Origin: Profundibacter sp.
GTDB lineage: Bacteria > Pseudomonadota > Alphaproteobacteria > Rhodobacterales > Rhodobacteraceae
Length of the DNA stretch: 64,000 nucleotides
Assembly: GCF_965277155.1 (NCBI RefSeq)
Contig: NZ_CBDIBV010000007.1
Span: 37,305 to 101,304, forward strand
Direction: 5' to 3'
Each line of letters starts with the position of its first letter. Within the stretch, counting starts at the first letter, position 1. The notes beneath the pieces were generated by a model, which was not told the DNA's origin, searched no databases, and worked only from the letters and a program-made list of their open reading frames with translations. The translations under genes and the position numbers were made by a program. Shown here one piece after another: positions 6,875-27,942 of this stretch.

Positions 6875-7024
6875 GTCCTTGCCCCGCTGCAAAACAATCT
6901 CGATTGTGAGTCTCTGCCCCTAAGGGGCACAGTTCAAGATTTAATTACACCTAATGGGACGATCATCATATGTAATCCGCGACATTGGTGTGGTGATTGG
7001 CGACATGGGGTTGTGCCGCCTGAC

Positions 7025-7119: not shown

Positions 7120-7207
7120 GCCACAAATACCTCCCGAGCGGAGCGGGAATCGCCCCGAAGGGGCCAAAAACAGAGCGCGCCGCAAGGCGCACCGCTGAAT
7201 CAGCGCA
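7120..7207 (-). repeat. Degenerate inverted copy of the same repeat (tail-to-tail with 7025-7111)
   Basis: The reverse complement ends ..CGGGAGGTATTTGTGGCAAGAAGAAAG and mirrors the tail of copy 1 across a 9-nt centre. The upstream part is GC-hairpin rich but diverged. Confidence 0.5.
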
Positions 7208-9266
7208 ACGCGGCTTCGATATTGCCGCCGTCCACCGTCATCACATGCGCCGTGGTGCGTTCGGACATCGCCAGCGCCACGAAAGCATCGGCCACATGGC
7301 GGGCCTCGACCTCGCGGCGGATCAGGTTGCCGGCCATATAGGTGCCCTCGTCAATGCCGCGGGCCTTTGCGCGTTCCTTGATGAAATCATCATCCAGCAG
7401 GCCCGAGCGGATACGATCGGCGTTGATGCCGTTCACCCGCACGCCCATAGGTCCCAGCTCCAGTGCGAACTGGCGTAGCAAGAAGAACGTCGCGGCCTTG
7501 GGCAGGCCATAGGCGCCGAACCCCTTGCCCGGGTTCACCGCCTGTTTCGAGACGTTATAGAGCAACTGCCCGCCGCGCCCCTGTGTCTGGAACACCTTCG
7601 CGGCAGCCTTGGAGAATGTCTGATGGGCAAAGAAGTTCAACTCGAAGCTTTTGCGTAAGCTTGCGTCATCCAGATCGATCATTTCACCCGTCCAGGCCGC
7701 GCCCGCGTTGGAGACCAGAATATCCACCCCGCCAAAGCGCGCCACGCAGGCATCAATCGCCTTTTGCGCCGCCCCACCGGCCGTGATGTCCAGCGCAATG
7801 CCGTCGTGGTCCGGCCCCAGTTGTTCCAGCCCCTTGTCCAGCGCCTCGTCAAACAGATCGACCAGCAGGATATTGGCGCCCAGATCGGCAAAGGCCTGTG
7901 CGGTGGCCAGCCCGATTGCCCCGCCGCCACCGGTAACGATCACCGTATGGCCGGCAAAACGCGGGTAGTTGCGCGAGGGCAGTTTGGCCTGTTCCAGCGA
8001 CCAGTATTCCATGTCGAACAGATCTTCTTCGCCCACAGGGTGGAATCCGCCGCAATCCTCGCCCATGCTCATGGCGGCAATGTTCTGTTCCGCCAGATCG
8101 GCGGCGATACGGGCCTCGCCTGCGTTTGCGCCCATGCCGATGATGCCGATCCCTTCGATCCAGGCCATATCCGGCACAGGGTTCAGCATGATCTTGCCGC
8201 CGCCAACGCGGGCGTTGTTGCGTTCGAAATAGGCCTTGTAATCCGCGATATAGGCGTCAACAGCGGAGGCAATCGCATCGGCGCCACCGGCCAGTATTTG
8301 CGTGGTCAGAACCAGTGGGAAATTCTTGGTGCGGATCACATGATCGGGCGTTGCCACCCCGCGTTTGGCCAGGTCCTGCCAATCCGCGCGGGCCAGAAAT
8401 TCCTGCACATTGTCGCCTGCCCGCAGATCCATCACCGGCATGAAAGTATCGCGATTGCCCAGAAATTCGGCGCGCCGCGCGCCAAGAATACCGCGCAGAA
8501 CCGGCATCACCTGAACCGCTTTGGCCTTGGTTGCCGCATCCGCCGGGCCGGACAGTTTCAACTTGCGTCCCATCTTCTGCGCCACCCAGTCCTCGACCAT
8601 GTTCACATGGGTGATCATCCGGTCATAAGCCAGCTTTGCGCTGTCGCCAAAGGTGAAATGCCCGTGGTTCAGCAAAAGCAAACCCTCGACTTCGGGATTG
8701 GCCTCGTAAACTGCGGCCGCCGCCTTGCCCAGATCAAACCCCGGCATGTGGAAGGGCACAACGGCCACCTTGCCGCCGAAAATCTCGTCCACCACCGCAG
8801 CCGCATTCGGCAGATCGGCAATCGCCAGCATCGTGGTGGCGTGGGTGTGGTCGATAAAACCGTGCGGCAGATAGGCGTGCAGCAGGATTTCAACCGACGG
8901 ATTCGGCCCGCTGGCGTCCAGCATGTTGCAACGCACGGTGTTCACCATGTCCTCGTCACTTAGGCCATCCAGTGCGCGCAGGGCCAGCAGCGGCTCCAGC
9001 CGCACCGCCGGCATCCCAGCCGGGGTGATCTGCGCCAGATCATGGCCGCTGCCCTTCACATGCAGCACCTTCACATCATTGCCGAACAAATCCTTGCGCA
9101 CCACCTTGCAGGATGTATTGCCGCCGCCGTGCTGCACCAGCGCCATACCGGCCCCCAACAGCCGCGAGGCATAAGCCTGAACCGCCAGATCCTGATCGGC
9201 CGGATCACCCCCCGCCTCTGCCGCAATCTTTTTTGCCTCGATGTCGTCCCAACGGTTTGCAACCAT
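7200..9266 (-). CDS. bifunctional class II aldolase / short-chain dehydrogenase (RhaD/RhaEW-type)
   Basis: 688 aa from MVANRWDD. The N-terminal domain has the HGGGNTSCKV block of rhamnulose-1-P aldolase-type fusions. The C-terminal ~250 aa form an SDR (TGGGGAIGLATA Rossmann motif, YGLPKAA catalytic Y-x3-K). Confidence 0.85.
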   Translation of the reverse strand: MVANRWDDIEAKKIAAEAGGDPADQDLAVQAYASRLLGAGMALVQHGGGNTSCKVVRKDLFGNDVKVLHVKGSGHDLAQITPAGMPAVRLEPLLALRALDGLSDEDMVNTVRCNMLDASGPNPSVEILLHAYLPHGFIDHTHATTMLAIADLPNAAAVVDEIFGGKVAVVPFHMPGFDLGKAAAAVYEANPEVEGLLLLNHGHFTFGDSAKLAYDRMITHVNMVEDWVAQKMGRKLKLSGPADAATKAKAVQVMPVLRGILGARRAEFLGNRDTFMPVMDLRAGDNVQEFLARADWQDLAKRGVATPDHVIRTKNFPLVLTTQILAGGADAIASAVDAYIADYKAYFERNNARVGGGKIMLNPVPDMAWIEGIGIIGMGANAGEARIAADLAEQNIAAMSMGEDCGGFHPVGEEDLFDMEYWSLEQAKLPSRNYPRFAGHTVIVTGGGGAIGLATAQAFADLGANILLVDLFDEALDKGLEQLGPDHDGIALDITAGGAAQKAIDACVARFGGVDILVSNAGAAWTGEMIDLDDASLRKSFELNFFAHQTFSKAAAKVFQTQGRGGQLLYNVSKQAVNPGKGFGAYGLPKAATFFLLRQFALELGPMGVRVNGINADRIRSGLLDDDFIKERAKARGIDEGTYMAGNLIRREVEARHVADAFVALAMSERTTAHVMTVDGGNIEAALR

Positions 9267-9314
9267 GATGCACCTGTGTAATTTCTGATCCATGCCTCGC
9301 CAAACGGGGCTTTT

Positions 9315-9326
9315 TGACAATTGTCA
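9315..9326. promoter_or_regulatory. 12-bp perfect palindrome TGACAATTGTCA in the aldolase-SDR / sorC divergent spacer
   Basis: Read directly. Same TGTCA/TGACA half-site as the palindrome at 12993-13010, with a further TGTCA at 9335-9339. Confidence 0.35.
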
Positions 9327-9359: not shown

Positions 9360-10331
9360 ATGGCAACAGTCACGCGCAGACGAAACACCGGGCAGGTCAC
9401 GGGCGAAAGCATCGTGATCGAGGCGGCGTGGCTGTATTACCATGATGGCATGAACCAGACCGAAATTGCCAGCCATCTGGGCGTTTCGCGCGCCACAGTG
9501 GTCAACTACCTGCAAGAGGCCAAGGAACGCGGGTATATCCGCATATCGCTGGCGCCCAAGGCATTCACCACCCACCGGCTGGCCGAGGAAATGCGCGAAC
9601 GCTTTGGCTTGGCGGCGGTTTATGTGGTGCCCGACGGCACCGGTACCGAGGAAGACGCACTGTTGCGGGTGGCGCGCGGGGCGGCGGAATGGCTGCCATC
9701 CTTGCTGGAACCGGGTGACAAGCTGGGCGTGTCCTGGGGGCGCACGGTTTACGAGATGGCCGAGGCCATGCCGCAGGTGCAGACCGATCATATCACCGTG
9801 TCGCAACTGGTGGGGTCGATGGCCACGCCCTACGGGTTTACCGCCGAAATCTGTTCCGCCCATCTGGCACAGCGGCTGGGCGCCAAATTGATCAACCTGC
9901 ACGCCCCGGCGGTTCTGAGCGATCCCGAACTGGCGGCCCGCCTGCGGGCCGAGCCGATTATACGAGATCAAATAGACGCGTTAAGCCACTGTAACAAAGC
10001 GATATTTGCCGCTGGCTCATGTGACCACAGCAGCCATATCGTCAGCAGCGGCTTGGCCAGCCATTCCGATCTGGACTGGTATATTAAACGTGGAGCTACC
10101 GGCGTGTTATGCGGCCGGTTCATTGACGCTGCCGGGCAGTTCATTCCGGGCGAACTGGATGACCGGATGATCGGGGTGGAGCTGGACAAATTGCAAGGGC
10201 TGGACATGGGCCTGCTGGTTTCGGTCGGGGCCGACAAGGTGGCCCCGATGCTGGCGGCAATCGCCGGTGGCTATGTGACCCATGTGGTGACCAGCGTGGC
10301 CACCGCCAAGGGGATGCTGACGGCAAGCTGA
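9360..10331 (+). CDS. SorC/DeoR-type sugar-binding transcriptional regulator
   Basis: 323 aa. N-terminal HTH block AAWLYYHDGMNQTEIASHLGVSRATVVNYL followed by a sugar-phosphate binding domain. This is the same family as LsrR/DeoR(Bs)/SorC. Confidence 0.85.
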   Translation: MATVTRRRNTGQVTGESIVIEAAWLYYHDGMNQTEIASHLGVSRATVVNYLQEAKERGYIRISLAPKAFTTHRLAEEMRERFGLAAVYVVPDGTGTEEDALLRVARGAAEWLPSLLEPGDKLGVSWGRTVYEMAEAMPQVQTDHITVSQLVGSMATPYGFTAEICSAHLAQRLGAKLINLHAPAVLSDPELAARLRAEPIIRDQIDALSHCNKAIFAAGSCDHSSHIVSSGLASHSDLDWYIKRGATGVLCGRFIDAAGQFIPGELDDRMIGVELDKLQGLDMGLLVSVGADKVAPMLAAIAGGYVTHVVTSVATAKGMLTAS

Positions 10332-10490: not shown

Positions 10491-11591
10491 CTAGTTCTGC
10501 ACCCTGTCAGGGAACATCGCGGCCAACCCTTCTGGCGAGGCTTCGCAAACGCCGCGTTCGGTGATCAGGCCGGTGACCAGACGCCGTGGTGTGACGTCGA
10601 ATGCCGGGTTGCCCCCCGGCGTGCCATCGGGGCTGATCTGCACTTCGGTCACGGTTCCGTCGGCCAGTTTTCCCTGCACATGGGTGACTTCGGTATCGGT
10701 GCGTTCCTCGATCGGGATTTCGGCAACGCCGTCCTTGACTGTCCAGTCGATCGTGGGGGATGGCAGCGCCACATAGAAGGGCACGTTGTTGTCCTTGGCC
10801 GCTAGCGCCTTCAGGTAGGTGCCGATCTTGTTGCAGACATCGCCATGCGCCGTGGTGCGGTCGGTGCCAACGATGCAAAGGTCAACCTGCCCGTGCTGCA
10901 TAAGGTGTCCACCTGCGTTATCGACGATCAGGTGATGCGGAATGCCGTGGCTGTTCATTTCCCATGCAGTCAGCAAAGCGCCCTGATTGCGCGGGCGGGT
11001 TTCATCGACCCAAACTTGGATCGGGATGCCGTCCTGCACCGCATGATACATCGGGCTGGTGGCGGTGCCCCAATCGACCGTGGCCAACCAGCCTGCGTTA
11101 CAGTGGGTCAGGATATTCACCACCTCGCCCGGCTTTTTCTTGGCAGCGATTTCGCGAATGATCTCAAGGCCATGCACGCCGATCATGCGGTTGCATTCCA
11201 CGTCTTCATCGGCAATTTCATGCGCCCGTTTCATCGCAGCCGCCGCGCGTTCACCTTCAGGCAGCGGTTTTAGCAGCGCGGTCATTTCGTCCAGCGCCCA
11301 ACGCAGGTTGATCGCGGTGGGGCGGGTTTCGTGCAGGATGTTCCATGTTAAAACCAGCGATTTGTCGGACGGGTCTAACGCCATCTGCACGGCCACACCA
11401 TAGGCGGCGGTGGCGCCGATCAATGGGGCGCCCCGCACCCACATATCGCGGATCGCCACCACGAAATCATCGCGGGTTTTTAGGTCAACCACGCGGAATT
11501 CATGCGGCAGCCAGCGCTGGTCAATGATCTGCACCTGCCCGCTTGGCTGATCGAACCAGATCGAACGGTAATGTTTATCGCCTACTTTCAT
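10491..11591 (-). CDS. mtnA: S-methyl-5-thioribose-1-phosphate isomerase family (MtnA/DrdI-like)
   Basis: 366 aa from [14 protein letters not shown]. Has [23 protein letters not shown] and [21 protein letters not shown] blocks typical of MtnA. The ATGA overlaps the mtnK stop. Confidence 0.9.
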
Positions 11592-12862
11592 GACTCTTTC
11601 CTTTGTCCAATCATACGCGCCTGTGAAATCACGTTGTCCAAATCTGCAAATGCCGCCCTGTTCACGGCCAGCGAGCGGCCCAAGCGCAGGCCCCTGCCCT
11701 CGCACTCGGCGCGCATCGCTTCATCCTCGATCAAATCGTTTTCGGCGATATGGGCCAGGCTAAGTGTGCGGCGGATCATTTCCACACCGGCAAAGCCCAG
11801 TGTGTCCTCGAAAATATGCTTGAGCCGCGCCGCAAGCGCCTGTTCCGACGCCAGATTGTCGCCCTGATCTTCGAACAGGCTGGCCTGATACAGGATGCCG
11901 TTGCGCTCGGTCCGCCACAGGTGCGAGAATTCATCGCAGAACCCGTGCCAGATTTCGCTGATCACGCCCAGAATCCATTCCTGATAGTCCGCCCGCGCCC
12001 CTTCGGATTCGGCGTGACCGGGTTGGGCGTAATAGGCCATAAAGAAGTTGGCCAGCAACATGCCGATGTCAAAGCCCATCGGGCCATAGGTGACAAATTC
12101 GGGATCAATCACCATGGTATCGGTGTCTGTCACCATGATCGAGCCGGTGTGCAGATCGCCATGCAGCATGGTTTCGGCGTTGTTGGCGAATTTCGCCTTC
12201 ATGTCCTGCGCAGCGACCTTCAGGTCAATGTCGGCCCGCAGCCGTTTTACCAGATCATCCAGACCCGGCGTGTGGTGGTTCAGCTCGGCCTCAAAGTAAG
12301 GGTCGGAAAACACAAGGTTTTCGGTGATGTCACATAGTTCGGCATTGTCGGCAAACAGTGCCAGATCGGCCTTGCGTTTGGCGGTGTCCATCGACAGGTC
12401 CGAGCCACGGAACATGGTCTTGCCCAGATAATCCCCCATCACAGCGGCAAGCCCGTCATGTTTTTTGCCGGCCATCAGCGAATGGCGCAGGATGATGTGC
12501 GGCGTTAAGAACTCCATCACGATCAGCGCCTGATCCTCGTCGAAATGATAGATTTCCGGCACCAGACCCGGCGCGCGTTCCTCTTGGCGGATCAAGGCGT
12601 GATATTCAAAGAACGCCCGTTTCAGCGGCAAGGGCCAACTGTCACCGACCAGCCGCACGTAAGGCAGCGCTTGTTTAACGATCACGGCGCCCTTGGGGCT
12701 TTTGACGATGAACACAAGGTTCAGGTTGCCATCCCCCACTTCATCCGCAACCCATGCGGATGTATCCTCTCCCAAGCGTTCCGTAACAGCCGAAATCCCG
12801 CCCAACCGCGCGGGAATCGTTTCTACCGTTAAGGGTTCGTAACCGGAGCTTTGTTCTGACAT
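11588..12862 (-). CDS. mtnK: S-methyl-5-thioribose kinase family (MtnK/DrdK-like)
   Basis: 424 aa from MSEQSS, with GGAGGGG 5 nt upstream. Has GDGNLNLVF, the [11 protein letters not shown] block and an aminoglycoside-kinase-like [11 protein letters not shown] motif. Confidence 0.9.
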
Positions 12863-12992
12863 GGTCCCCTCCATCCTTGGGATCGGCCCCGTTTAACCCT
12901 ATATTTCAAAGGGTTTCGGACAGATCCGCTTTATCGCCCCGTCCTTGAGAAACGCGGCTTGTTAGACATAGCATTGTAAACAGATCGTCATT

Positions 12993-13010
12993 TGTCAATG
13001 GCCATTGACA
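12993..13010. promoter_or_regulatory. 18-bp perfect palindrome TGTCAATGGCCATTGACA (candidate operator, two back-to-back TTGACA boxes)
   Basis: Read directly; the reverse complement is identical. Lies in the 184-bp mtnK / ABC divergent spacer. Confidence 0.5.
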
Positions 13011-13058: not shown

Positions 13059-14591
13059 ATGTCCAAGGCTGCTGTTGAAATTCAGGGACTGACAAAAGCG
13101 TTCGGCACAAACCGTGTGCTGCGTGGTATTGATCTGGAACTGAATTCTGGCGAAGTGACCGTGTTGATGGGCGCCAATGGCGCTGGAAAATCAACGCTGG
13201 TCAAGGTGATCTGCGGCGTTCACCCTGCTGACACCGGCACAATCCGTCTGCACGGGGAAGAGTTGAAAACCACCACCCCGTCCGAGGCAATCCGCGCCGG
13301 TATCGTCACCGTTCACCAGAATATCAATGACGGGGTGATTCCCGATCTGGATGTGGCCTCGAACCTGATGCTGGACACGTTGGCCGAACCCAAAAGCGGG
13401 TTTTTCCTGAAACGCCGCGAGATCCGGCAAAAGGCACGCGAACTGGCCGGGTCCATGGGGCTGGATGTGGACGTAAACCAGCCGGTTAACGAGTTGGCGC
13501 TGGCCGACCGCCAGTTGGTCGCCATTGCCCGCGCGATGGCACATGAACCCAAACTGATGATTCTGGACGAACCCACCTCGTCCCTGTCTGCAACCGAGGC
13601 CGCGCGGCTGTTCACCCTGCTGGACCGTTTGCGCGATGCGGGTGTGGCCATTCTGTATATCTCGCACCGGACCAGCGACATCCACCGCATCGCCGACCGG
13701 ATTGTCAGCATGCGTGACGGCGAAATTGTTGGCACATTCGAGCAAAAGCCGCTGGATTACGAGGCCGCTGTAAACGCCATGCTGGGCCACAAAATGTCCG
13801 AGGTTGATCTGGACATCAAATCCGCTGGCCAGCCGGTGCTGGAACTGAAAGACCTGCAAATTCGCGAAGGCACAGCCAAAATAAACCTGACCGTCCACGC
13901 AGACGAGGTTCTGGCGATTACCGGTCTGGTCGGATCGGGCAAATCCGAACTGGCGGCCATTCTGTATGGGCTGAAGAAACCCGCAGGCGGCAGCATGTCC
14001 CTGCTGGGAAAACCCTATAATCCGAAATCCCCGCGCCATGCGATTGATACCGGTGTGTTCATGTGCGCCAAGGATCGCGGCACCAATGGTGTTTTGCAGG
14101 ATCACAACCTGACCAAAAACATCACTGCCCCGTTTCTGGCGCGGTTTTCCACCCTGTCCTTTGTCAACCGCCGGCGCGAGGCCCGCGCAACCCGAAATAT
14201 GATTTCGGACCTGGGCATTGTCTGCCAGTCCGAGCAGGACGATATCGGCACCCTGTCGGGCGGAAACCAGCAAAAGGTGGTGATCGGCCGCTGGTTAAGC
14301 CAGCCATCCGATTTGTTGATACTGGACGAGCCGTTTCAAGGCGTCGACATCAAGGCCCGCCGCGACATCGGTGCAAAAATCCGCGAAACGGCCAAGGGGC
14401 GGGCGACCATCGTTCTGGCCGCGGAAATGGACGAGGTTCTGGAAATCGCCGACCGGATCATTGTGCTGGCGGATCATGCCATCGTTGGCGAGCACCGCAA
14501 CATCGATCTGGACGTAAAACAGGTGGTGGCCGAAGTTGCAGGCATGACAAACGGCACCAATGGACAAACCAATACTCAAGTGAACGGATAA
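13059..14591 (+). CDS. sugar ABC transporter ATP-binding protein (CUT2, duplicated ATPase)
   Basis: 510 aa from MSKAAVEIQGL, with GGGGGAAGGA upstream. First Walker A GANGAGKST; second signature LSGGNQQKV. Confidence 0.9.
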   Translation: MSKAAVEIQGLTKAFGTNRVLRGIDLELNSGEVTVLMGANGAGKSTLVKVICGVHPADTGTIRLHGEELKTTTPSEAIRAGIVTVHQNINDGVIPDLDVASNLMLDTLAEPKSGFFLKRREIRQKARELAGSMGLDVDVNQPVNELALADRQLVAIARAMAHEPKLMILDEPTSSLSATEAARLFTLLDRLRDAGVAILYISHRTSDIHRIADRIVSMRDGEIVGTFEQKPLDYEAAVNAMLGHKMSEVDLDIKSAGQPVLELKDLQIREGTAKINLTVHADEVLAITGLVGSGKSELAAILYGLKKPAGGSMSLLGKPYNPKSPRHAIDTGVFMCAKDRGTNGVLQDHNLTKNITAPFLARFSTLSFVNRRREARATRNMISDLGIVCQSEQDDIGTLSGGNQQKVVIGRWLSQPSDLLILDEPFQGVDIKARRDIGAKIRETAKGRATIVLAAEMDEVLEIADRIIVLADHAIVGEHRNIDLDVKQVVAEVAGMTNGTNGQTNTQVNG

Positions 14592-14597
14592 CCGAAA

Positions 14598-15644
14598 ATG
14601 CAGGACGGCACGAATACGCACAAAGACATGGCGCCAAAGAAAACGCTGGTGGATTATGCCATCCGTTACGGGTTTCTGACCCTTCTTGCGGGGCTGCTGA
14701 TCTTTTTCTCGGTGGCAACCGACGGCTTCCTTAGCCCCTATAGCGCGGTGTTCATTTTCCAGTCGGTCGCGATCACCGGTATTCTGGCGCTGGGTGTCAC
14801 ATTCACACTGGTGGTGGACGGGTTCGACCTGTCGATCGGATCGACCGCCACCTCGGCGCTGATGCTATCGGCCTATATGATGGTGGTGCTGGGCACCGGC
14901 GTGGTGCCTGCGGTGCTGGCCTGTCTGGTAATGGGCGCGCTGATCGGGCTGGTGAACGGGCTGCTGATCGTAAAGATGAAGGTGCCCGACCTGTTGGCGA
15001 CATTGGGTATGATGTTCCTGCTGATCGGTTTGCAACGGATCCCGACCGAAGGACGGTCCATCGCCACCGGTATGAAACTGCCCGATGGCAGCACCGCGAA
15101 TGGCACGTTTTCACCTGAATTCCTGTGGCTGGGCCGTCACCGGTTCGATTTTTTCATTGATAACCTGATCCCGGTTTCGGTGGTCATTCTGGTGATCGTG
15201 GCCATCCTGTGCTGGGTGTTTTTGGAACTGACCCGCCATGGTCGGCTGATGTATGCCATCGGATCGAACCAGCGGGCAGCGGCACTGGCGGGAACCAATG
15301 TGAATCGCTATAAAATTCTGGCCTATATGATTTCCGGCGTGCTGGCCTCGGTCGGGGGTATCCTGCTGGCGGCGCGTCTGGGGCGGGGTGATATCGCCTC
15401 GGGCAATAACCTGCTGCTGGATTCCGTGGCCGCCGCATTGATCGGTTATGCGGTGATGGGTGCGGCCAAACCGAACGCCTTTGGCACAGCCATCGGGGCG
15501 CTGTTTGTCGGCATCCTGCTGCAAGGGCTGACGATGATGAACGCCCCTTACTATACACAGGATTTCGTTAAGGGGGCGGTGCTTGTGATTGCCCTCGTCT
15601 TTACCTTCGTGCTGACGGGTCGGCGCGGCGGATCAACCCACTAG
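14598..15644 (+). CDS. sugar ABC transporter permease (single permease gene)
   Basis: 348 aa, multi-TM, of the RbsC/AraH type (..AAALAGTNVNRYKILAYMISG..). Confidence 0.9.
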   Translation: MQDGTNTHKDMAPKKTLVDYAIRYGFLTLLAGLLIFFSVATDGFLSPYSAVFIFQSVAITGILALGVTFTLVVDGFDLSIGSTATSALMLSAYMMVVLGTGVVPAVLACLVMGALIGLVNGLLIVKMKVPDLLATLGMMFLLIGLQRIPTEGRSIATGMKLPDGSTANGTFSPEFLWLGRHRFDFFIDNLIPVSVVILVIVAILCWVFLELTRHGRLMYAIGSNQRAAALAGTNVNRYKILAYMISGVLASVGGILLAARLGRGDIASGNNLLLDSVAAALIGYAVMGAAKPNAFGTAIGALFVGILLQGLTMMNAPYYTQDFVKGAVLVIALVFTFVLTGRRGGSTH

Positions 15645-15679: not shown

Positions 15680-16732
15680 ATGAAACTTACACGACGTATC
15701 GTTCTGGGTATGGCAGGCGGGATTGCAGCACTTGCAACCGGCTTTGCCAGCCCGACATTCGCAGGCGACATGCCGGCACCTTTCGACAATGCAGGGGATG
15801 TGAAAATTGCACTGGTGCGCTATCTGTCCACCGGCGATTTCTTTCAGGCCTATCTGTCGGGTGTTGAAGCACAATCCGCTGCCCTTGGTGTTGACCTGCG
15901 GGTATTCGACAGCCGCCAGGACGCCGCATTGCAGGCCGACATGGTGGACCAGGCCATCGCCCTTGGGGTTGATGGCATCATCATCCAGCACGGTCTGACC
16001 GAATCCATGCAAGAGGCCGCACAACGTGCCATTGATGCCGGGATCAAGGTTGTGGCGTTTGACGTGAACGTCAAAAATGACGCGATCCCGCAAGTCGAAC
16101 AATCCGACCGTGATCTGGCCCGTCTGGCGCTGGAACAAGCGATCAAGGACAATGGCACATCATTCAAGGCCGGTTACGTTTACGTTGCCGGTATTGCCCC
16201 GCTGGATCGTCGCGACGAAACATGGGTCAAGGTAAAAGAAGCCAACCCGGGCATCGAAGAAGTCGCCCAGTTCGGCACGCTGGACAACCCGATTGCCAAC
16301 TCTGTTGCCAATCAGGCCCGTTCGGTTCTGCAGGCCCATCCCGACATTCAGGTGATGTTCGCCCCCTACGACGAATTCGCCAAAGGTGTCAAAATCGCTG
16401 TGGACGAAGCCGGCCTGAACGAGCAGATCAAGATTTATTCGGCCGACGTGTCCACCGCCGACATTTCCGCCATGCGCGAACCTAACAGCGCATGGGCCGC
16501 AACTGCCGCCACCAACCCTGCTGTTGTGGGCGAAGTTTCGGTGCGGGCATTGGCAATGTTGCTGGCTGGCGAAGACCCAGGCCACAACGTGATCATTCCG
16601 CCCACCCTGATCACTCAGGCCATGCTGCAAGACAAAGACATCAAGAATATGGAAGAACTGTCGGCCAAACTGCCCCAGTTCGCCCACGCCGATGTTGCCG
16701 TGCCAGCATGGATGCCCCTGCCCCCGCGCTAA
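15680..16732 (+). CDS. periplasmic sugar-binding protein (PBP type I)
   Basis: 350 aa with a signal peptide (MKLTRRIVLGMAGGIAALATGFA) and a ribose-type SBP body. Ligand unknown; I see no obvious LsrB signature. Confidence 0.85.
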   Translation: MKLTRRIVLGMAGGIAALATGFASPTFAGDMPAPFDNAGDVKIALVRYLSTGDFFQAYLSGVEAQSAALGVDLRVFDSRQDAALQADMVDQAIALGVDGIIIQHGLTESMQEAAQRAIDAGIKVVAFDVNVKNDAIPQVEQSDRDLARLALEQAIKDNGTSFKAGYVYVAGIAPLDRRDETWVKVKEANPGIEEVAQFGTLDNPIANSVANQARSVLQAHPDIQVMFAPYDEFAKGVKIAVDEAGLNEQIKIYSADVSTADISAMREPNSAWAATAATNPAVVGEVSVRALAMLLAGEDPGHNVIIPPTLITQAMLQDKDIKNMEELSAKLPQFAHADVAVPAWMPLPPR

Positions 16733-16805: not shown

Positions 16806-17252
16806 ATGATGCTGATCGGAATAGACGCCAATATGACGCCTGATTTGCTGGATTGCCTGATGCGCATGGGGCATGGCGATGAAATCGTTGTTGCCGATGC
16901 CAATTTCCCTGCCACCTCGACCGCCGCCCATACCCAATGGGGCGACGTGATCCCCCTGCCCGCCATGATGGCCCCCGATGCGATCAAACTGATCACCGGC
17001 GTGATGCCTCTGGACGGGTTCGCCGATGCTTGCGCCCTGCGCATGCAGATTGACAATACGCCCGACGAAATGGGCGAGGTGCATAGACAAGCCTTTGACA
17101 TTCTATCCGCCGCCATGCCCGAAGGTGCCGCCCTTGGCAGCCTGGAGCGACAGGAATTCTATCAGCGCGCCCGTGATGCCTTTGGGGTAGTTGCCACCAC
17201 CGACATGCGGCCCTATGGCTGCTTTATCTTGCGCAAAGGTGTGATCTTTTAG
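16806..17252 (+). CDS. RbsD/FucU family sugar mutarotase/pyranase
   Basis: 148 aa with MGHGDEIVVADANFP, matching the FucU HGDEI..D..FP motif. AAGGAG SD upstream. Confidence 0.85.
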   Translation: MMLIGIDANMTPDLLDCLMRMGHGDEIVVADANFPATSTAAHTQWGDVIPLPAMMAPDAIKLITGVMPLDGFADACALRMQIDNTPDEMGEVHRQAFDILSAAMPEGAALGSLERQEFYQRARDAFGVVATTDMRPYGCFILRKGVIF

Positions 17253-17259
17253 GAACGAC

Positions 17260-17940
17260 ATGATGAGCATCGACGATCTGAAATCCCGCGCCAAAGGCAT
17301 CAGCCTTGGCCTGTTTGCCGCCGATCTGGGAAACCTGCGCCGCGCGGCGCAAAACGTGGCCGAGTGGGGTTGCAACATCCTGCATTTCGACATCATGGAC
17401 GGCGTGTTCGTGCCACAGATGATCGGTGGCCCCGGCTTTGTCGCCGCGATGGACCTTGGCCTGCTGCGCGATGTGCATCTGATGGTGCAAAACCCCGCCG
17501 CCCATGTGGAAAGCTATATCAAGGCCGGTGCCGATATGATCACCGTTCACGCTGAATCCGATAACGCAACCGAAGCGATCAAAATCATTCAGGCATCCAA
17601 CCGCCCCGTCATGGCCGGTCTGGCCCTGATGCCCGGCACCACGCTGGAGGATGCAGCCCCCCTGCTGGCGCTGAACCCCGATATGATCCTTGTGCTGTCA
17701 CTGGACCCGCGTGGCACCCGAGCCGACATCACCGCCGCCTGCACCCGCCTGACCGAGCTGCGCGAAACCGCCCCCAATGCGGTGCTTGCCTTTGATGGCG
17801 GTGTCACGCTGGACAGCATTACAGAAATAGCTGCCTGCGCGCCCGATATGGTGGTCAGCGGCAGCGCCGTTCTGGGCGCCAAGAAACCCAAACGTGCCTT
17901 TGCCGCAATGGTCAAGGCGCTTGAAACCGCTAACACTTAA
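17260..17940 (+). CDS. ribulose-phosphate 3-epimerase family protein (divergent)
   Basis: 226 aa with [12 protein letters not shown] (Rpe H-x-D-x-MDG-x-FVP) and a C-terminal GG..L..I.....D..V.GSA pattern. Confidence 0.8.
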
Positions 17941-17963: not shown

Positions 17964-18845
17964 ATGGCAGATATTGATGACATCAAGGACGGCAAAGACT
18001 TTGGCCTGAACACCCCGCAGGACAAACAGGGCTTTTTCCTGAAGGGCCTTGCCAATTACGACTGGGGCATCAAAAATAAGATGAGCCGCATCTTTAACCC
18101 GAAAACCGGCCGCACCGTTATGCTGGCCTTTGACCACGGCTATTTCCAGGGGCCGACAAAGGGTCTGGAACGGATCGACCTGAACATCCTGCCACTGGCC
18201 GAACATGCCGATGTGTTGATGTGTACCCGTGGCGTTCTTCGCTCGATGATCCCGCCAACCCTGACCAAACCGATTGTGATGCGCGCCTCTGGTGGTAACT
18301 CGATCCTGTCGGAACTGTCGAACGAAACCATTGCGGTTGCGATGGATGATGCGGTTCGCATGGGCGTTTGCGCGATGGCCGCACAGGTCTATATCGGGGC
18401 GGAATACGAACATAAGTCCATCACCAACGTGATCCGCCTGATTGACGAAGGCATGCGCGTGGGCATCCCGACACTGGCCGTCTCCGGCGTTGGCAAAGAC
18501 ATGGCCCGCGATGCGCGCTACTTTGGTCTGGCCACCCGGATCGCTGCCGAAATCGGCTCGCATTACGTCAAAAGCTACTTCATCGAGGAAGGCTTTGAAA
18601 AAGTCGTTGCCGGTTGCCCTGTGCCGATCGTGATTGCAGGTGGTAAAAAGCTGCCCGAACTGGACGCGCTGGACATGGCGTTCCGCGCTGTTGATCAGGG
18701 CGCTGCCGGTGTCGATATGGGTCGCAACATCTTCCAATCGGACGCCCCTGTTGCAATGATCAAAGCGGTTTCCAAGGTTGTGCATGAACTGATGCCCGCC
18801 AAGCAGGCCTATGAACTGTATAACGATCTGAAATCCGAAGGCTGA
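17964..18845 (+). CDS. lsrF: LsrF-like class I (DhnA-fold) aldolase/thiolase
   Basis: 293 aa. [13 protein letters not shown].., [52 protein letters not shown] and [11 protein letters not shown] are near-identical to blocks I recall from E. coli LsrF. This has not been aligned computationally. Confidence 0.8.
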
Positions 18846-18911: not shown

Positions 18912-18952
18912 AAAAAAACCGCGGCCGTTTTACCGGTCGCGGTTTTGTTTTT
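18912..18952. terminator. bidirectional terminator between convergent genes
   Basis: A7, then the stem ACCGCGGCCG/CGGTCGCGGT, then TTTTGTTTTT. Confidence 0.65.
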
Positions 18953-18967
18953 CAAAAGGTTATGACC

Positions 18968-20583
18968 CTAACGCAATTTGTCCTGGTTCGAGCCACGGAT
19001 CCATACTTCGACCCGACGGTTCAACTGGCGTCCGTCCAGCGTTTCGTTACACCCAACCGGCGCAACCGGACCAAACCCGAAAGTTTTGACGTTTGCGGCG
19101 TCCAGAATACCGATAGTGCTGTTCAGAATATCGGCCTTGGCGCGTTCGGCACGGGCCTTGGACAGGGCGATGTTGTTGTTGAACACACCTACCGTATCAC
19201 TAAAGCCAACCAACAGGATGTCGTTGCCGTCAACCAGTCCGTTGCGAACCAGTTCGGAAATCCGGCGAACATCGCGCAGGGCGCGCTCGTCCAGCTGGGC
19301 CGACCCGGATACAAACCGCAATGTTGTCGACAAACGGTCTGCTGTCGAAACCTCGGCCAGATAATCGCGATAGGCATTGATACCGGCGCGGTCAATTGAC
19401 GAGGCAAGCATCGCGGACAACAGACGTTCGCCCTGCTCGCTCATCGGTTGCTTGTCAATTGCCAGACCAACCAGACCGGCCTCCTGTGCAGCGGCCTGTC
19501 CTTCGTTCGAGGACAGGTATTCTGCCAAGCTCTTGGAAAGATCGGGCACATCCTGACCCTGAAGGGTATACAGGTGCCAGCCCATGGTCAGCGGATATTC
19601 TTCGGTTTGCAGCGAAAAGGAATTCGCGCTTGAGAAGATGTTACATGCATTGCGGGTTGTCGGAATGCTGTTGCCTTTGTTTTGTGAACGATAAGATACC
19701 GCAAACGCCATCGGATCATCGGCAATCGCTTTGTTCAACTCGTCCAGTGTTTCATGGACCATCACATTCGCAGCCAACCGCAAACCGCGCGGTGCCAGAA
19801 TATCGCGCTTGATCACCCGTGCCAAATTGCTATCTGCATTCAACACATGCAACTGGATCGCACCATCATCGCCGCCAACATCTTTCCAGTTGGTAACCCG
19901 CCCGGACAGAACATCCCCCATCTGTTTAAGTGACATGGAACGCACGCGGTTTGCAGGGTTCATGGTTGCTGTCAAAGCATCAAGCGCAATTGTCTGGGCA
20001 TTCAGACGCGCGGCCACATCACTGGCCCGCATGTTAACGATCCCTGCAATCTCTTGTGTGGTGAAATCTTCGCGGGTCAGGGCAAAAGCCGCGTCACCCG
20101 AAAACAGCGCCTTGAGGGATGCAATATCATCAGTCGGTGTGACCGTGATACTGGCCACCAGTTCACCTGTATTATTCCCCAGCAGATAGTTCATTTGGGT
20201 TCCGTCATAAGAAATCGAACGCGTCACATTCAGGGATTTTTCATTGGCAAACCGGTTCAGTGCTTTGCCGATAAACTGCTCGCCAACACCAGCCGGGGAT
20301 GCGACCTTGAATTCGGCCACAACTGGGCCAAGATCGGGGCAGACATCGCCCACACATGTCACAAATTCACTGCGGACTGTCAGAACACCCTGTTCGCTTT
20401 CAATCACATAGTTTGTGCCATCATATTCTTGCAGAGTACCGGTAAAGCGTGTGCCGTCCCCCGAAATCAGGCTAACCGTTCTGTCCACTTGCTCTTCGGC
20501 CTTTTCGCTTGGGCAAGAGGCCCCCTCGCAGCTTACGAATTCGCTACGGATGGTCAGAACACCCACAACGGTTTTCAACGTAT
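18968..20583 (-). pseudogene. PstS-like binding domain + C-terminal OmpA-like domain protein, 5'-truncated at the IS boundary
   Basis: The frame stays open up to the IS end at 20584. There is no signal peptide and the first in-frame start is a TTG. A duplicated GVLT(I/V)RSEFV(S/T)C.G..CP motif is present, and the C-terminus reads ..LNRRVEVWIRG (OmpA_C-like). Confidence 0.6.
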
Positions 20584-21865
20584 GGGAACCTCTGTAAATT
20601 CCCGTTTTCGCCTTCTTCGCGGCGGGGTGGACGGTTTTTCGCCTGTCCCGCCTGATTGCTTCGGATCATAAACCCATTTTCACCGGTTTCAAGCCGGTTT
20701 TGGGTATTTCAGGCACACCTCACCCCATGAACCCTTATCCCGGCGCCGCCAGGCCGCATTCGAACTGGACGAAGCGCTTCATGTTGTAGACCAGGTTCAT
20801 CATCCCGATGCGAAATCGCGCCCGCTTCAGGCCGATGGAGCGGATCAGCTTGCCGCCCATGGAGCGCTCCTGAAAAGCGAATACATGCTCGACCCGGACC
20901 CGCACTTTCGAGCGCCTCCGGTTGGCCTTTTGCTGGCGCTCGCCAAGCGGCTTGCCGCGCCTGCCCTTGTGATGGATATGGCTGTGAAGCCCCCGCTCTT
21001 CCAGCTCGCTTTCGATCTTTTGCGAGCGATAGGCGCTGTCGGCCCACAGGTCCGATGAGGTGTTGCTCGCATCAATCAGACCGGCAAGCGCCTGGCTGTC
21101 ATGCACGGCGGCATCGGTGACATCATAAGCGCGGATGAATTTGTGCCGCCGGTCGACATTGATGTGGTTCTTGTAGCCGTAATAGCTCTTGCCGTGCTTC
21201 TTCGTCCAGCGCGCATCCACGTCCTTCTGGCGCTTCTTGTGGGGTTTTTCCTCCCACTCTTCAGGCGTTTCGCCCGCCTTGATTTTCTCGTTCTCGTCCC
21301 TTTTGTTGTGCTGGCGCGGCGCCGGAACGATGCTCGCATCAACAATCTGCCCGCCCATCGCCAGATAGCCCTTTTCGCGCAGAAAGGCATCGAACTTGTC
21401 AAACAGCTCCTTCATCTTCCCGGCCCCGGCCAGCCTTTCACGGTAGGCCCAGATGGTCTTGGCGTCAGGTACGCTGTCTTCAATGCCAAGGCCGAGAAAC
21501 CGCATGAACGACAGGCGGTCGCGGATCTGATACTCGATCTGATCGTCAGAGAGGTTGTAGAGCTGCTGCAAAACCATCGTCTTGAATATCAGCACCTCAT
21601 CCCAAGGCGGGCGGCCAGCGTTGGATTTGCGCTGTTCGGGCGGCGTGCGCCATATGGCCTTCAGCTCGTCCCGGTAATCCTCGAACGGCACCATGTCGTT
21701 GAGCAACACCAGCGGATCACCAGATTTGTCCAGTCCCGCGTATCGGCTGGAAAGATCAAAAAATCCCATCTGACCCATGACAAAACCCCGTCGGTCGAAT
21801 CATTTTCATCCTGATGACGATTCTACCCCGTCAGGCCGGATTTTGGGGGATTTTTAGAGGTTCCC
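20584..21865 (-). mobile_element. IS5-family element type A, copy 1 (1282 bp)
   Basis: Terminal IRs are GGGAACCTCTGTAAATTCCC and GGGAACCTCTAAAAATCCCC (right end, reverse complement). By eye it is identical to 48526-49807. No target duplication at this copy. Confidence 0.9.
20735..21778 (-). CDS. IS5-family DDE transposase (347 aa)
   Basis: DDE_Tnp_1-type sequence (..DASIVPAP.., KHGKSYYGYKNHINVD, ADSAYRS). Confidence 0.9.
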   Translation of the reverse strand: MGQMGFFDLSSRYAGLDKSGDPLVLLNDMVPFEDYRDELKAIWRTPPEQRKSNAGRPPWDEVLIFKTMVLQQLYNLSDDQIEYQIRDRLSFMRFLGLGIEDSVPDAKTIWAYRERLAGAGKMKELFDKFDAFLREKGYLAMGGQIVDASIVPAPRQHNKRDENEKIKAGETPEEWEEKPHKKRQKDVDARWTKKHGKSYYGYKNHINVDRRHKFIRAYDVTDAAVHDSQALAGLIDASNTSSDLWADSAYRSQKIESELEERGLHSHIHHKGRRGKPLGERQQKANRRRSKVRVRVEHVFAFQERSMGGKLIRSIGLKRARFRIGMMNLVYNMKRFVQFECGLAAPG

Positions 21866-22688
21866 CTCAGGTTGCATGGAATGGCAGCTTGCGCCCATGA
21901 TCTGCTGTCCGCGCGCAAGCCGCCAAGTCTGACCACAGCGATAAGGCAACTGATCGACGCCGAGACTGTAGAGCGCCGGGTGCGCTCCATCCAGTATCAA
22001 ATGAGGGTTGCGAAGTTCCCCCATCACAAGGACTTCGCCACCTTCGATTACAGCGCCGCCGCCCTCACCCAGGCCCAGATCGAACCATTCTGCACCGGCC
22101 AGTTCACAGAGGAGGCCCATAACCTCATCCTGGTGGGCGGAACCGGCACGGGCAAAACCCACATCGCCATCGCGCTGGGAACGACGCTGATCAACAACGG
22201 CAAGAAGGCGCGCTTCTTCAACGCCGTCGATCTGATCAACGCCCTGATCAAGGAACAGGCCGACGGCAATGCAGGGAAGATCATCCGGCAGCTCTCGGCT
22301 TTGGACTGCGTCATCATCGACGAGCTGGGCTACATCCCGTTTCCCAAATCCGGTGGCGCGTTGCTCTTCCATCTGATCAGCAAGCTCTACGAGAAGACCA
22401 GCATCATCATCACAACCAACCTTGAGTTCGGTGAATGGGTCTCGGTCTTCGGGGATGCCAAGATGACAACCGCCCTTCTGGATCGCGTCACTCATCACTG
22501 CAACATCATCGAAACCGGCAATACCTCATACCGGTTCGCCCAGAGTAAACGCCGTAGAAAAAACTAGCCGTTCCGCAAGCAAAGCCCCCAGACGGACTCG
22601 CTACATGAAGGCGGCCCGACTGGGGGCTTTGCGCCACAAAGGGGGGGGCAAATTTAAATGCCGAAACCGGGTCAGTTTTAAATGCTCA
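21866..22688 (+). mobile_element. IS21-family remnant (3' part only: truncated istB plus right end)
   Basis: Abuts the IS5 copy directly. The right end carries repeated TTTAAATGC motifs and ends ..GCTCA at 22688. Confidence 0.65.
21872..22567 (+). pseudogene. IstB-like ATP-binding helper protein, N-terminally truncated
   Basis: Walker [10 protein letters not shown] and Walker [10 protein letters not shown], ending ..[19 protein letters not shown]. Lacks the first ~25-30 residues, and no istA lies upstream. Confidence 0.75.
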
Positions 22689-27211: not shown

Positions 27212-27942
27212 AACAGCCCCCTGACCCAGTCCAGCGCCGTTTTGTCCGTTTCCACCCGATTGCAGGGCAGCAGCGGCGGGCGGTTGATCAGCAGCACGGG
27301 AATTTTCAACTGCCGTGCCGCCACCAGCTTGGTGCGGCTTAACATCCCGCCTGCATTTTTCACCACCAGCCAATCGACCTTGCGCCGCGTGAACAGCTCC
27401 ACTTCTTCTTCCACCGAAAACGGCGGTCGCCCGATCAGATATTCCCCGCCTTCATACGGGAATTCCCCCTCGGAAGTTTCAATCTGTCGGCAAATGATCT
27501 GCCGTCCGGTCAGGTTGTCAAACCGGTGCAGTGTCTGGCGTCCCGTGGCCAAGAACACCGTATCCCCTTGCGGGATATGCTGCGCGGCCTCGCTTTCATC
27601 ATCAATGAAAGTCCACAAATCCCTCGGTTCCGGCTCCCACGCCGGGCGCAGGATTTGTAAGTGCGGGATGTCCAGCTCCTGCGCCACCTCGAAACAGCGT
27701 TTGCTAATGATCTGCGCAAACGGATGGGTGCCATCAATCACCGCATCAAACCCTTGATCTTGCAAGTATTTCCGAAACGCATCACGCCCGCCAAACCCGC
27801 CCGAACGCATCGGCACCGGCAGGTCCAGCGGCTCGCGCGTCACACCGGCAAGCGAGGCGATCACGTCTATTTCCGGTATTTCGGCCAAAGCCCCCGCCAA
27901 ACGGCGTGCTTCGCTTGTGCCCGCCAATAATAACAGCTTCAT
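27208..27942 (-). CDS. cobK: precorrin-6A reductase
   Basis: 244 aa starting MKLLLLAGTSEARRLA, with ..IDGTHPFA.. and ..LATGRQ.. typical of CobK/CbiJ. Confidence 0.9.
   Translation of the reverse strand: MKLLLLAGTSEARRLAGALAEIPEIDVIASLAGVTREPLDLPVPMRSGGFGGRDAFRKYLQDQGFDAVIDGTHPFAQIISKRCFEVAQELDIPHLQILRPAWEPEPRDLWTFIDDESEAAQHIPQGDTVFLATGRQTLHRFDNLTGRQIICRQIETSEGEFPYEGGEYLIGRPPFSVEEEVELFTRRKVDWLVVKNAGGMLSRTKLVAARQLKIPVLLINRPPLLPCNRVETDKTALDWVRGLL

Follow-up and report, generated by a model that had tools for sequence, protein, structure and literature searches.

In a 64,000-nucleotide stretch of the genome of Profundibacter sp. (hereafter the window), we find a gene for an LsrF-family protein as the last gene of a sugar transporter operon that diverges from mtnK and mtnA, the predicted kinase and isomerase genes of 5-methylthioribose and 5-deoxyribose salvage, close to a gene that fuses a class II aldolase-type domain to a short-chain dehydrogenase/reductase (SDR). 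Conserved linkage and a shared candidate operator argue that this LsrF is, very probably, functionally integrated in the mtn regulon. We further propose, as a reading that we regard as evenly balanced between right and wrong, that the SDR oxidises 5-deoxyribulose 1-phosphate to 3-hydroxy-2,4-pentanedione 5-phosphate (P-HPD), from which LsrF and coenzyme A (CoA) would then give dihydroxyacetone phosphate (DHAP) and acetyl-CoA. To our knowledge, LsrF has been known only as the last step in the destruction of autoinducer-2 (AI-2), and we know of no function for LsrE, the epimerase homolog of some lsr operons.

A predicted LsrF-family thiolase at the end of a transporter operon

The open reading frame (ORF) at 17964-18845 on the + strand (ATG start, 293 codons) is present as given in the preliminary description of this DNA, and all five peptide blocks quoted there occur in its translation. 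Its match to the LsrF equivalog model of NCBIfam spans nearly the whole length (NF006081; E 4e-152, 505.5 bits vs. a cut-off of 297, residues 1-290 of 291); its top structure matches are the solved LsrF chains 3gkf, 3glc and 4p2v from Salmonella and E. coli (E ~1e-139, residues 1-288), and tblastn gives 69% identity to the LsrF of E. coli K-12. The models for 2-amino-3,7-dideoxy-D-threo-hept-6-ulosonate (ADH) synthase (TIGR01949, 160 bits vs. 299; NF005556, 175 vs. 241) and for the archaeal class I fructose 1,6-bisphosphate (FBP) aldolase (NF040816, 106 vs. 430) all stay below their cut-offs. Proteins of these two kinds share the TIM-barrel superfamily and an equivalent Schiff-base lysine with LsrF, and their structures are much weaker matches (119 bits for M. 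jannaschii MJ0400, 2qjg; 61-62 bits for T. tenax FBP aldolase).

Across 86 aligned LsrFs from all contexts, 108/291 columns are invariant, and D57, H58, K203, Y205, G226, G227, K228, D251, M252, G253 and R254 (E. coli numbering) are conserved in 86/86. The published active site comprises the catalytic residues Lys203, Asp251 and His58 and a phosphate cradle of Gly226/Gly227/Gly253/Arg254, in a protein of the class I aldolase superfamily that has the Schiff-base lysine and lacks conservation of the residues that donate protons in class I aldolases (PMC2728841). Conversion of P-HPD and CoA to DHAP and acetyl-CoA is reported for E. coli LsrF, the one protein for which this activity is known (Marques et al. 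2014, cited by PMC6410053). Family models, structure matches and the active-site alignment bear out what the preliminary description had supposed: the window protein is, almost certainly, a member of the LsrF family rather than a DhnA/FBP-aldolase-type enzyme; its catalytic lysine and the other known active-site residues are among the invariant positions. Comparing LsrFs from lsr operons with those beside mtn genes, we found 18 conservative differences, mostly following taxonomy, and no class-specific substitution at a known active-site position, and hence no sign of neofunctionalisation. Since these residues are invariant in every context, the chemistry of LsrF is likely the same in all of them.

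The gaps between the RbsD/FucU-type mutarotase gene and the Rpe-like gene (7 nt) and between the latter and LsrF (23 nt) are tight, and a terminator-like hairpin follows 70 nt past the LsrF stop; LsrF is therefore the final gene of an operon that runs from the ATP-binding cassette (ABC) transporter through the mutarotase and the Rpe-like gene, divergently from mtnK-mtnA (Table 1). It is not a standard lsr operon: tblastn with E. coli queries found no LsrK, LsrG or LsrB homolog anywhere in the 64 kb (best E = 0.07), there is a single permease gene, the ATPase falls short of the LsrA model (344 bits vs. a cut-off of 586), and the binding protein scores far below the LsrB model and gave no tblastn match with E. 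coli LsrB. The preliminary description had read the nearby gene content, the lone permease and the binding protein in the same way.

LsrF stays linked to the mtn genes through rearrangement

We assembled 80 genome loci around LsrF relatives and 80 metagenome loci around fusion relatives (referred to below by L numbers). The tblastn queries used to score them were the proteins of the window, the Lsr proteins of E. coli, and further proteins encountered as the comparison went on. The nearest relatives of the window are metagenome-assembled genomes (MAGs) of marine Rhodobacteraceae named Marinosulfonomonas and Aliiroseovarius. In loci with an 85-94% identical LsrF, genes for MtnK, MtnA, a SorC-type regulator and the fusion are present wherever the contig extends far enough, and lsrK, lsrG and lsrB are absent from all of these loci by tblastn. 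The gene order of the window is repeated in L003, L007, L009, L010, L014 and L139. Elsewhere, SorC-MtnA-MtnK faces Rpe-LsrF with no transporter between them (L008), the fusion faces Rpe-LsrF-SorC (L012), fusion-SorC-MtnA faces LsrF (L017), and LsrF-Rpe faces MtnA (L092). At least four gene orders (L003/L009, L008, L012, L017 and L092) thus keep such an LsrF together with MtnK, MtnA, SorC and the fusion.

An 18-bp palindrome, TGTCAATGGCCATTGACA (TGTCAAT-N4-ATTGACA), lies upstream of mtnK in the window. Its core, TGTCAA-N6-TTGACA, has one match in the window (0.11 expected) and occurs exactly once in 17/169 loci; in those checked for placement (L091, L104 and L107) it stands directly upstream of mtnK, and in three rearranged loci the palindrome stands immediately before Rpe/LsrF (L008, 4143-4160; L017, 9580-9597; L092, 5302-5319). 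Probably it serves as operator for the SorC-type regulator encoded next to it. Linkage conserved through rearrangement, together with this shared operator, argues for Rpe and LsrF as members of the mtn-gene regulon, and the link to MtnK, MtnA and the SDR fusion that had been proposed for the window holds across the rearranged loci. A related palindrome, TTGACAATTGTCA, is found at ~9314-9326, in the interval that separates the regulator gene from that of the fusion.

The companion of LsrF had been called Rpe-like. Membership in the Rpe family stands; the gene is, however, an lsr-operon-type paralog and not the housekeeping Rpe, being 31% identical to E. coli Rpe (123 bits vs. the rpe cut-off of 213) and 48-52% identical to Rpe-like genes within two canonical lsr operons, one in Rhodobacter maris (L022), the other in a Rhodobacterales MAG (L027). 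Every Rpe-like match in the fetched loci comes from a locus that also has LsrF. On sequence, we assign it as an ortholog of the alphaproteobacterial lsr-operon epimerase. Orthology to the enteric LsrE is not claimed because identity to Salmonella LsrE is only 29% and because our Rpe tree, with E. coli Rpe as its sole outgroup, cannot test monophyly with that protein. Enzymes of the Rpe family epimerise C3 of 2-ketose phosphates. One Salmonella lsr locus has the order lsrF-lsrG-'epimerase', and Salmonella lsrE is described as an epimerase homolog whose deletion had no detectable phenotype in the work reported (PMC2728841).

LsrF genes outside AI-2 operons often accompany kinases and dehydrogenases

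In a neighbour-joining tree of 86 LsrFs (without bootstrap support), those in mtn contexts form one clade, and their sister clade occurs with Dak-type kinases, an iron-containing alcohol dehydrogenase (Fe-ADH) and a GlpD-like dehydrogenase. The LsrFs of the canonical Rhodobacterales lsr operons L022, L026 and L027 (76-78% identical) are interleaved in the tree; the enteric LsrFs are separate.

Several non-lsr layouts include the aldolase/SDR fusion or one of its parts. MtnA, the fusion and LsrF lie on one strand in L065, and LsrF lies near an MtnA-fusion pair in L085. The order ABC transporter-DhaK-DhaL-LsrF-fusion is found in Prosthecomicrobium and two others (L079, L035 and L076), and plain LsrF-fusion pairs in L033, L034 and a Shinella plasmid. 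In L055 (Mesorhizobium quangtriensis), L074 and L082, DhaK-DhaL-LsrF is followed by a stand-alone SDR that is 49-52% identical to the SDR domain of the window, with no aldolase-domain match within 10 kb. The order SorC-GlpD-like-FGGY kinase-LsrF occurs in Celeribacter and Tropicimonas (L029, L031 and L032). On plasmid p3 of Sagittula sp. MA-2 (L171, 1132-11039), a binding protein, ABC ATPase, permease, SorC regulator, GlpD-like dehydrogenase, FGGY kinase and LsrF stand in this order; after LsrF, the Sagittula plasmids encode a stand-alone protein that shares 41% identity with the fusion over its aldolase and middle domains. Plasmid p1 of Shinella sp. H4-D48 (L172, 8956-18831) has, in order, LsrF, the fusion, an ABC transporter, an FGGY kinase and a GlpD-like dehydrogenase. 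The Rpe-LsrF pair also occurs with Dak, Fe-ADH and GlpD-like genes (L004, L024 and L025). The Sagittula, Shinella and Mesorhizobium quangtriensis records are from cultured strains that carry related operons.

Every informative non-lsr context of LsrF that we examined has a kinase and at least one dehydrogenase; the Litoreibacter locus (L020) is only partly annotated. As a control, 14/47 non-lsr LsrF genes, vs. 0/37 canonical lsr loci, have a homolog of the SDR domain at a distance of no more than 10 kb, counts made over loci that are not phylogenetically independent, with at least five architectures that are. As judged from gene content, MtnK with MtnA, DhaKL, and FGGY with GlpD-like would be three ways to make either a ketose 1-phosphate or some related keto-phosphate. 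The FGGY plus GlpD-like front end parallels erythritol catabolism.

A Hoeflea sp. MAG (L028, 57-10879) has an operon-like run that starts with a xylulokinase-like FGGY kinase, a PfkB kinase and a DeoR/SorC regulator, continues with a 2-hydroxyacid dehydrogenase, a FucA-like aldolase and an aldolase/SDR fusion (NF006192, 778 bits), and ends with an SBP56-family protein, a 2Fe-2S ferredoxin, a small CoA-binding-domain protein, an Rpe-like protein and LsrF. The CoA-binding protein beside LsrF is suggestive; the SBP56-family gene was considered as a clue to a methylthio substrate and set aside as too weak (a methanethiol-oxidase match of 159 bits vs. the MtoX cut-off of 650). Orphan LsrFs, whose neighbourhoods contain neither lsr nor mtn genes and neither kinases nor dehydrogenases, occur in Rhodobacter capsulatus and relatives (L005, L021 and L023) and likewise in marine Rhodospirillaceae MAGs (L038, L047, L052, L056, L064 and L066), which represent a large LsrF clade. 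In the latter, judged by eye from translations, LsrF follows a look-alike of the suf Fe-S operon, which is uninformative, and precedes a look-alike of a molybdopterin oxidoreductase of ~770 aa.

The aldolase/SDR fusion and its relative RhaEW

The SDR that had been placed at 7200-9266 is there, as the C-terminal domain only of a fusion whose N-terminal domain is class II aldolase-type with an intact metal site. Its ORF has 706 codons, reaching to a TTG at 9320, with a likely start at a Met at 9266. The protein matches the model for the 'bifunctional aldolase/short-chain dehydrogenase' (NF006192, 862 bits vs. a cut-off of 639) and falls below that for RhaEW (TIGR02632, 426 bits vs. 568). The equivalents of FucA E73, H92, H94 and H155 are conserved in its aldolase-type domain. 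The motifs TGGGGAIG and YGLPK and an Asp after beta-2 make the C-terminal domain a classical SDR of the secondary-alcohol type, and the solved structures nearest to it are those of sorbitol, xylitol and xylulose dehydrogenases. SDRs that prefer nicotinamide adenine dinucleotide (NAD) typically have an acidic residue at that place after beta-2. The idea that LsrF-linked fusions have a degenerate aldolase site, which would have spoken for the thiolase route, was tried and rejected: the metal ligands are intact with and without a linked LsrF, so that this test does not discriminate.

RhaEW (YuxG), a fusion of rhamnulose-1-phosphate aldolase and lactaldehyde dehydrogenase, is the only assayed member of the fusion family. 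Its published assay followed the overall reaction only (rhamnulose 1-phosphate + NAD+ to DHAP + lactate), gave neither DHAP nor lactate when NAD+ was left out and never used free lactaldehyde as substrate (PMC3870299); our search of the literature found no mechanistic follow-up on RhaEW. The absence of DHAP without NAD+ fits oxidation before C-C cleavage and is awkward for an aldolase-first order, so that, with an overall assay only, the order aldolase then dehydrogenase is not established for this family. RhaEW and the window fusion are alike in their three-part architecture, class II aldolase-type metal site and classical SDR, and RhaEW requires NAD+ and acts on a deoxy-ketose 1-phosphate (PMC3870299). 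They differ in that the window fusion belongs to NF006192 rather than TIGR02632, adjoins mtn rather than rha genes, and is paired with LsrF in its lineage.

A proposed route and its alternatives

We infer the substrate, its oxidation at C4 and the thiolysis of that product as follows. The ABC transporter and mutarotase would import the sugar (5-deoxyribose or 5-methylthioribose), and MtnK and MtnA would convert it to 5-deoxyribulose 1-phosphate (or methylthioribulose 1-phosphate). The NAD-dependent SDR domain would then oxidise the C4 hydroxyl to a 2,4-diketone that is constitutionally P-HPD; as the preliminary description had worked out, C4 oxidation of CH2OP-CO-CHOH-CHOH-CH3 does give CH2OP-CO-CHOH-CO-CH3. 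LsrF would form a Schiff base through the equivalent of E. coli Lys203, transfer the acetyl or methylthioacetyl group to CoA and release DHAP. The Rpe-like enzyme may set or racemise C3, and by analogy it could act at C3 of P-HPD, in which the spacing from phosphate to C3 equals that in ribulose 5-phosphate. In relatives without LsrF, the fusion alone would finish the pathway, presumably giving a free acid or aldehyde; under an oxidation-first order it would cleave the diketone hydrolytically to the acid. LsrF, where present, would intercept the diketone and save its acyl group as a CoA thioester, and Rpe-like plus LsrF would be a two-gene module added at the end of an uptake and salvage cluster. 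An oxidation-first fusion with LsrF intercepting the diketone would explain why LsrF is optional and yet travels with this dehydrogenase family. We favour this reading because of the kinase and dehydrogenase found in each informative non-lsr context, the three kinds of front end, the secondary-alcohol type of the SDR domain and the NAD+ requirement of RhaEW. The bias of SDR-domain homologs towards non-lsr contexts (14/47 vs. 0/37) and the three DhaK-DhaL-LsrF loci with a stand-alone SDR lend indirect support to the SDR as the maker of the LsrF substrate.

A number of points weigh against this route. At least 11 sister clusters (the metagenome loci L094, L098, L100, L102-L104, L107-L109, L125 and L130) have the layout of transporter, mtnK-mtnA, SorC and fusion, with fusions 55-67% identical to that of the window. 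Searches as permissive as E < 0.01 turned up neither Rpe nor LsrF within 10 kb in these clusters, which are free of runs of N; in 5/5 of those checked (L094, L098, L100, L108 and L130), convergent genes directly follow the binding-protein or mutarotase gene. Many of the compared loci are contigs, cut at 10 kb, from MAGs or metagenomes, and presence and absence in them are calls at tblastn thresholds. The sister clusters without LsrF imply that the fusion is able to finish the pathway alone. Pairs of MtnA and fusion that lack MtnK are likewise frequent (L129, L134, L141-L146 and L152). On the evidence of gene content, MtnK, MtnA and the fusion make up a complete route by themselves and Rpe/LsrF an optional, accessory branch, a picture that replaces the linear kinase-isomerase-dehydrogenase-thiolase island drawn in the preliminary description. 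The metal ligands E73, H92, H94 and H155 are kept in every fusion aligned across that domain, LsrF-linked or not, and the conventional aldolase-first order, which may apply where they are intact, never makes P-HPD. The SDR domain of RhaEW was published as an aldehyde dehydrogenase (PMC3870299). Operons of FGGY kinase, GlpD-like dehydrogenase and LsrF fit LsrF acting as an aldolase equally well, and the roles within the window cluster, that of LsrF included, are predictions.

The last of these arrangements bears on an account in which, as published for RhaEW, the fusion cleaves first and its SDR oxidises the aldehyde, and in which the Rpe-like protein and LsrF form a parallel route of epimerase and class I aldolase, 5-deoxyribulose 1-phosphate being converted to its C3 epimer and then by LsrF, without CoA, to DHAP and acetaldehyde. 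Both DhaKL-LsrF-SDR and FGGY-GlpD-LsrF read well as kinase, (dehydrogenase), aldolase and aldehyde dehydrogenase, and C3 epimerisation of 2-ketose phosphates is what the Rpe family does. LsrF itself belongs to the class I aldolase superfamily and has the Schiff-base lysine; the same source reports the class I proton donors to be unconserved in it (PMC2728841), and E. coli LsrF is cited as a CoA-dependent thiolase (PMC6410053). The proteins concerned are, moreover, 67-94% identical to canonical lsr-operon LsrFs with the known active-site residues invariant, and in five layouts that combine fusion and LsrF a second aldolase would be redundant beside an intact aldolase-type domain. We consider this account distinctly unlikely. 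A different substrate altogether is, in our judgement, also unlikely: here Rpe-like and LsrF would belong to the regulon and act on another compound (e.g. another deoxy-ketose or a diketone phosphate), imported or endogenous, with its kinase or dehydrogenase encoded elsewhere, and the 5-deoxyribose route would end at the fusion. The Rpe-LsrF pairs with unrelated front ends (L004, L024, L025 and Hoeflea L028), the orphan LsrFs of R. capsulatus and marine Rhodospirillaceae, and the frequency of clusters without LsrF would all suit it. Against it, the pair in L008, L017 and L092 stands beside mtnK/mtnA with the same operator and no other enzyme gene between, MtnA, fusion and LsrF follow one another on one strand in L065, and profile searches found no kinase besides MtnK in the window cluster.

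Finally, LsrF could be the leftover of a decayed AI-2 lsr operon that came by chance to lie beside the mtn genes, maybe aided by insertion sequences (IS); four IS copies and other transposase genes do lie downstream in the window, and Rhodobacterales have canonical lsr operons with 76-78% identical LsrFs, some with an internal Rpe-like gene (L022, L026 and L027). A leftover of this kind is hard to square with an intact ORF and conserved active site, an arrangement kept in more than 10 MAG or metagenome lineages as LsrF diverged to 85-94% identity, a common operator, tight gene spacing, and relatives' loci in which lsrK, lsrG and lsrB are missing. We therefore rejected it as very improbable. 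The preliminary description had named lsrK/lsrG beside the gene in close relatives as a sign of such decay, and the loci with 85-94% identical LsrFs show neither.

Beyond the route proposed for the window, we offer tentatively, as a possibility on the doubtful side, that LsrF (often with the Rpe-like protein) is a general back-end module for thiolytic cleavage of 2,4-diketo sugar phosphates, and that the fusions, RhaEW included, work oxidation-first. Its front ends may be MtnK + MtnA for aldoses, DhaKL for ketoses, FGGY + GlpD-like for polyols and LsrK + LsrG for AI-2, and in each a dehydrogenase may turn a ketose 1-phosphate or deoxy-ketose phosphate into the beta-diketone for LsrF. The fusion family may on the same argument be a ketose-1-phosphate 4-dehydrogenase followed by hydrolytic or thiolytic cleavage of the diketone.

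Relation to known pathways

The cluster resembles lsr operons in its LsrF (equivalog level, ~69% identity, with identical phosphate-binding residues, Schiff-base lysine, Asp251 and His58). An Rpe-family gene and a SorC-family regulator accompany this LsrF and may be compared with LsrE in Salmonella and LsrR in both Salmonella and E. coli, at identities of 29% between the Rpe-like protein and Salmonella LsrE and of 27-29% between the SorC regulators of close relatives and LsrR. It differs in having no LsrK, LsrG, LsrB or second permease, with MtnK, MtnA and the aldolase/SDR fusion as partners instead, and the LsrF substrate here would come from oxidation of a 5-deoxy-ketose 1-phosphate, not from isomerisation of phospho-AI-2.

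A closer precedent is the DHAP shunt. The gene set MtnK-MtnA-Ald2 was characterised in extraintestinal pathogenic E. coli ATCC 25922, where it is reported to lead from 5'-deoxyadenosine/5-deoxyribose to DHAP and acetaldehyde and from methylthioadenosine/methylthioribose to DHAP and methylthioacetaldehyde (PMC10986504). In B. thuringiensis, 5-deoxyribose salvage by DrdK-DrdI-DrdA was proven in vitro, and some Drd clusters are described as having sugar transporters and a fucose-mutarotase homolog (Beaudoin et al., PMC6079011). The locus of E. coli Nissle has mtnK-mtnA, a FucA-like aldolase and a sugar transporter, with yjhU, a gene for a SorC-type regulator, beside the DHAP-shunt genes; identities to the window proteins are 46% for MtnK, 63% for MtnA and 36% for YjhU. 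The FucA-like aldolase Ald2 of E. coli has no blastp match in the window, the class II aldolase-type domain of the fusion included. In the window, a RhaEW-like fusion replaces the FucA-like aldolase, and Rpe-like and LsrF genes are appended; DHAP would be expected as a product in both systems, and the predicted two-carbon product here is acetyl-CoA (or acetate) and not free acetaldehyde. Judged by its genes, the window cluster is a DHAP-shunt/Drd-type system with a different back end.

In a collection of plasmids searched by DNA similarity, matches were at the level of mtnA only. On a plasmid of Rhizobium sp. RCAM05350 (L001, 6274-15411), the same ABC permease and binding-protein genes as in the window and mtnA stand beside a gene like that for the large subunit of ribulose-1,5-bisphosphate carboxylase/oxygenase (RuBisCO), and this RuBisCO-like protein is there instead of the fusion and LsrF. 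The same transporter and mtnA with a RuBisCO-like protein indicate that the front end of uptake, kinase and isomerase is modular; its back end may be Ald2, the fusion, the fusion with LsrF, or the RuBisCO-like protein, which makes at least four.

Other features of the window

The features of the cluster are collected in Table 1. The mtnA start was inferred from the onset of the hidden Markov model alignment, its ORF reaching 11705; the mechanical ORF of the ABC ATPase runs from 13005, and translation likely begins at the ATG at 13060.

Table 1. Genes and other elements of the mtn/LsrF cluster in the 64,000-nucleotide window.
Feature	Position	Strand	Basis
Terminator-like hairpin directly 3' of aldolase/SDR stop	7174..7193	-	8-bp stem, 6 G-C pairs, then T-run
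Class II aldolase-type + middle + SDR domain fusion	7200..9266	-	NF006192; Pfam Aldolase_II + adh_short
SorC/DeoR-type sugar-phosphate-binding regulator, LsrR's family	9360..10331	+	Pfam Sugar-bind PF04198, 2.5e-52
MtnA/DrdI-type 5-(methylthio/deoxy)ribose-1-phosphate isomerase (predicted)	10491..11591	-	TIGR00512, 423 bits, cut-off 279
MtnK/DrdK-type 5-methylthioribose / 5-deoxyribose kinase (predicted)	11588..12874	-	TIGR01767, 485 bits, cut-off 275
Candidate palindromic operator TGTCAATGGCCATTGACA	12993..13010	.	divergent mtnK / ABC-operon promoter region
Sugar ABC transporter ATPase	13060..14591	+	two ABC_tran domains; AraG/YtfR/XylG-type models best, all below cut-off
Sole ABC permease	14598..15644	+	BPD_transp_2; RbsC-like, 160 bits, below cut-off
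Periplasmic sugar-binding protein, not LsrB	15680..16732	+	Peripla_BP_4; LsrB model 32 bits vs. cut-off 384
RbsD/FucU-family mutarotase	16806..17252	+	PF05025, 1.3e-29
Rpe-family epimerase paralog, lsr-operon kind	17260..17940	+	rpe models, 123 vs. 213 bits, below cut-off
LsrF-family 3-hydroxy-2,4-pentanedione-5-phosphate thiolase (predicted)	17964..18845	+	NF006081 profile, solved structures, tblastn, active-site alignment
Strong intrinsic-terminator-like hairpin closing the ABC...LsrF operon	18915..18946	+	13-bp stem, 8 G-C pairs, then T-run

On one side, the aldolase/SDR gene is adjoined by a unit of two formate-dehydrogenase-like genes (2433-6892, - strand) for a molybdopterin subunit and a Nuo51/NuoE-like subunit, of the NAD-linked type. 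On the other, a gene fusing PBP_like_2 (phosphate-binding-protein-like) and OmpA domains (18968-20578, - strand) is convergent to LsrF and is followed by an IS-rich stretch downstream of the LsrF operon, with two IS pairs of the DDE_Tnp_1/DUF772 kind (20581-21865 and 48522-49807, 99.9% identical; 29152-30380 and 52437-53665, 99.8% identical), an IstB fragment (21872-22567) and a Mutator-family transposase (35492-36742). The remainder of the window is ordinary chromosome, with gyrA, aroB, cobalamin genes and a xerC/D-type recombinase. Among the cobalamin genes, a CbiD gene (27939-28988) lies near a 669-aa ORF (31846-33855) that joins a tetrapyrrole methylase domain to CbiA and GATase_3 domains of the kind found in cobyrinic acid a,c-diamide synthase, a fusion that looked unusual to us.

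Implications

Searches of the literature for LsrF together with 5-deoxyribose, MtnK or short-chain dehydrogenase returned nothing relevant, and those for 'LsrF-like' or 'LsrF homolog' returned no hits. Each of the components, LsrF family, DHAP shunt and fusion family, is already known; what is new is their combination, the evidence for a wide use of LsrF outside AI-2 operons with sugar kinases and dehydrogenases, and the reinterpretation that these imply for the mechanism of the fusion.

Many bacteria that are unable to import AI-2 carry 'orphan' LsrF genes, and 5-deoxyribose and methylthioribose are universal by-products of radical-SAM enzymes and of polyamine synthesis. The associations described here suggest a catabolic function for LsrF that has nothing to do with quorum sensing. 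If the proposed route is correct, LsrF would have a mainstream catabolic role in a CoA-dependent, acetaldehyde-free variant of the DHAP shunt, the way in which the widespread aldolase/SDR fusions work, RhaEW included, would need to be re-examined, and 'lsrF present' in marine metagenomes would be poor evidence of AI-2 signalling. Should the more general module view also prove true, the 'quenching' of AI-2 would be one specialised use of an older chemistry of deoxy-sugar catabolism.

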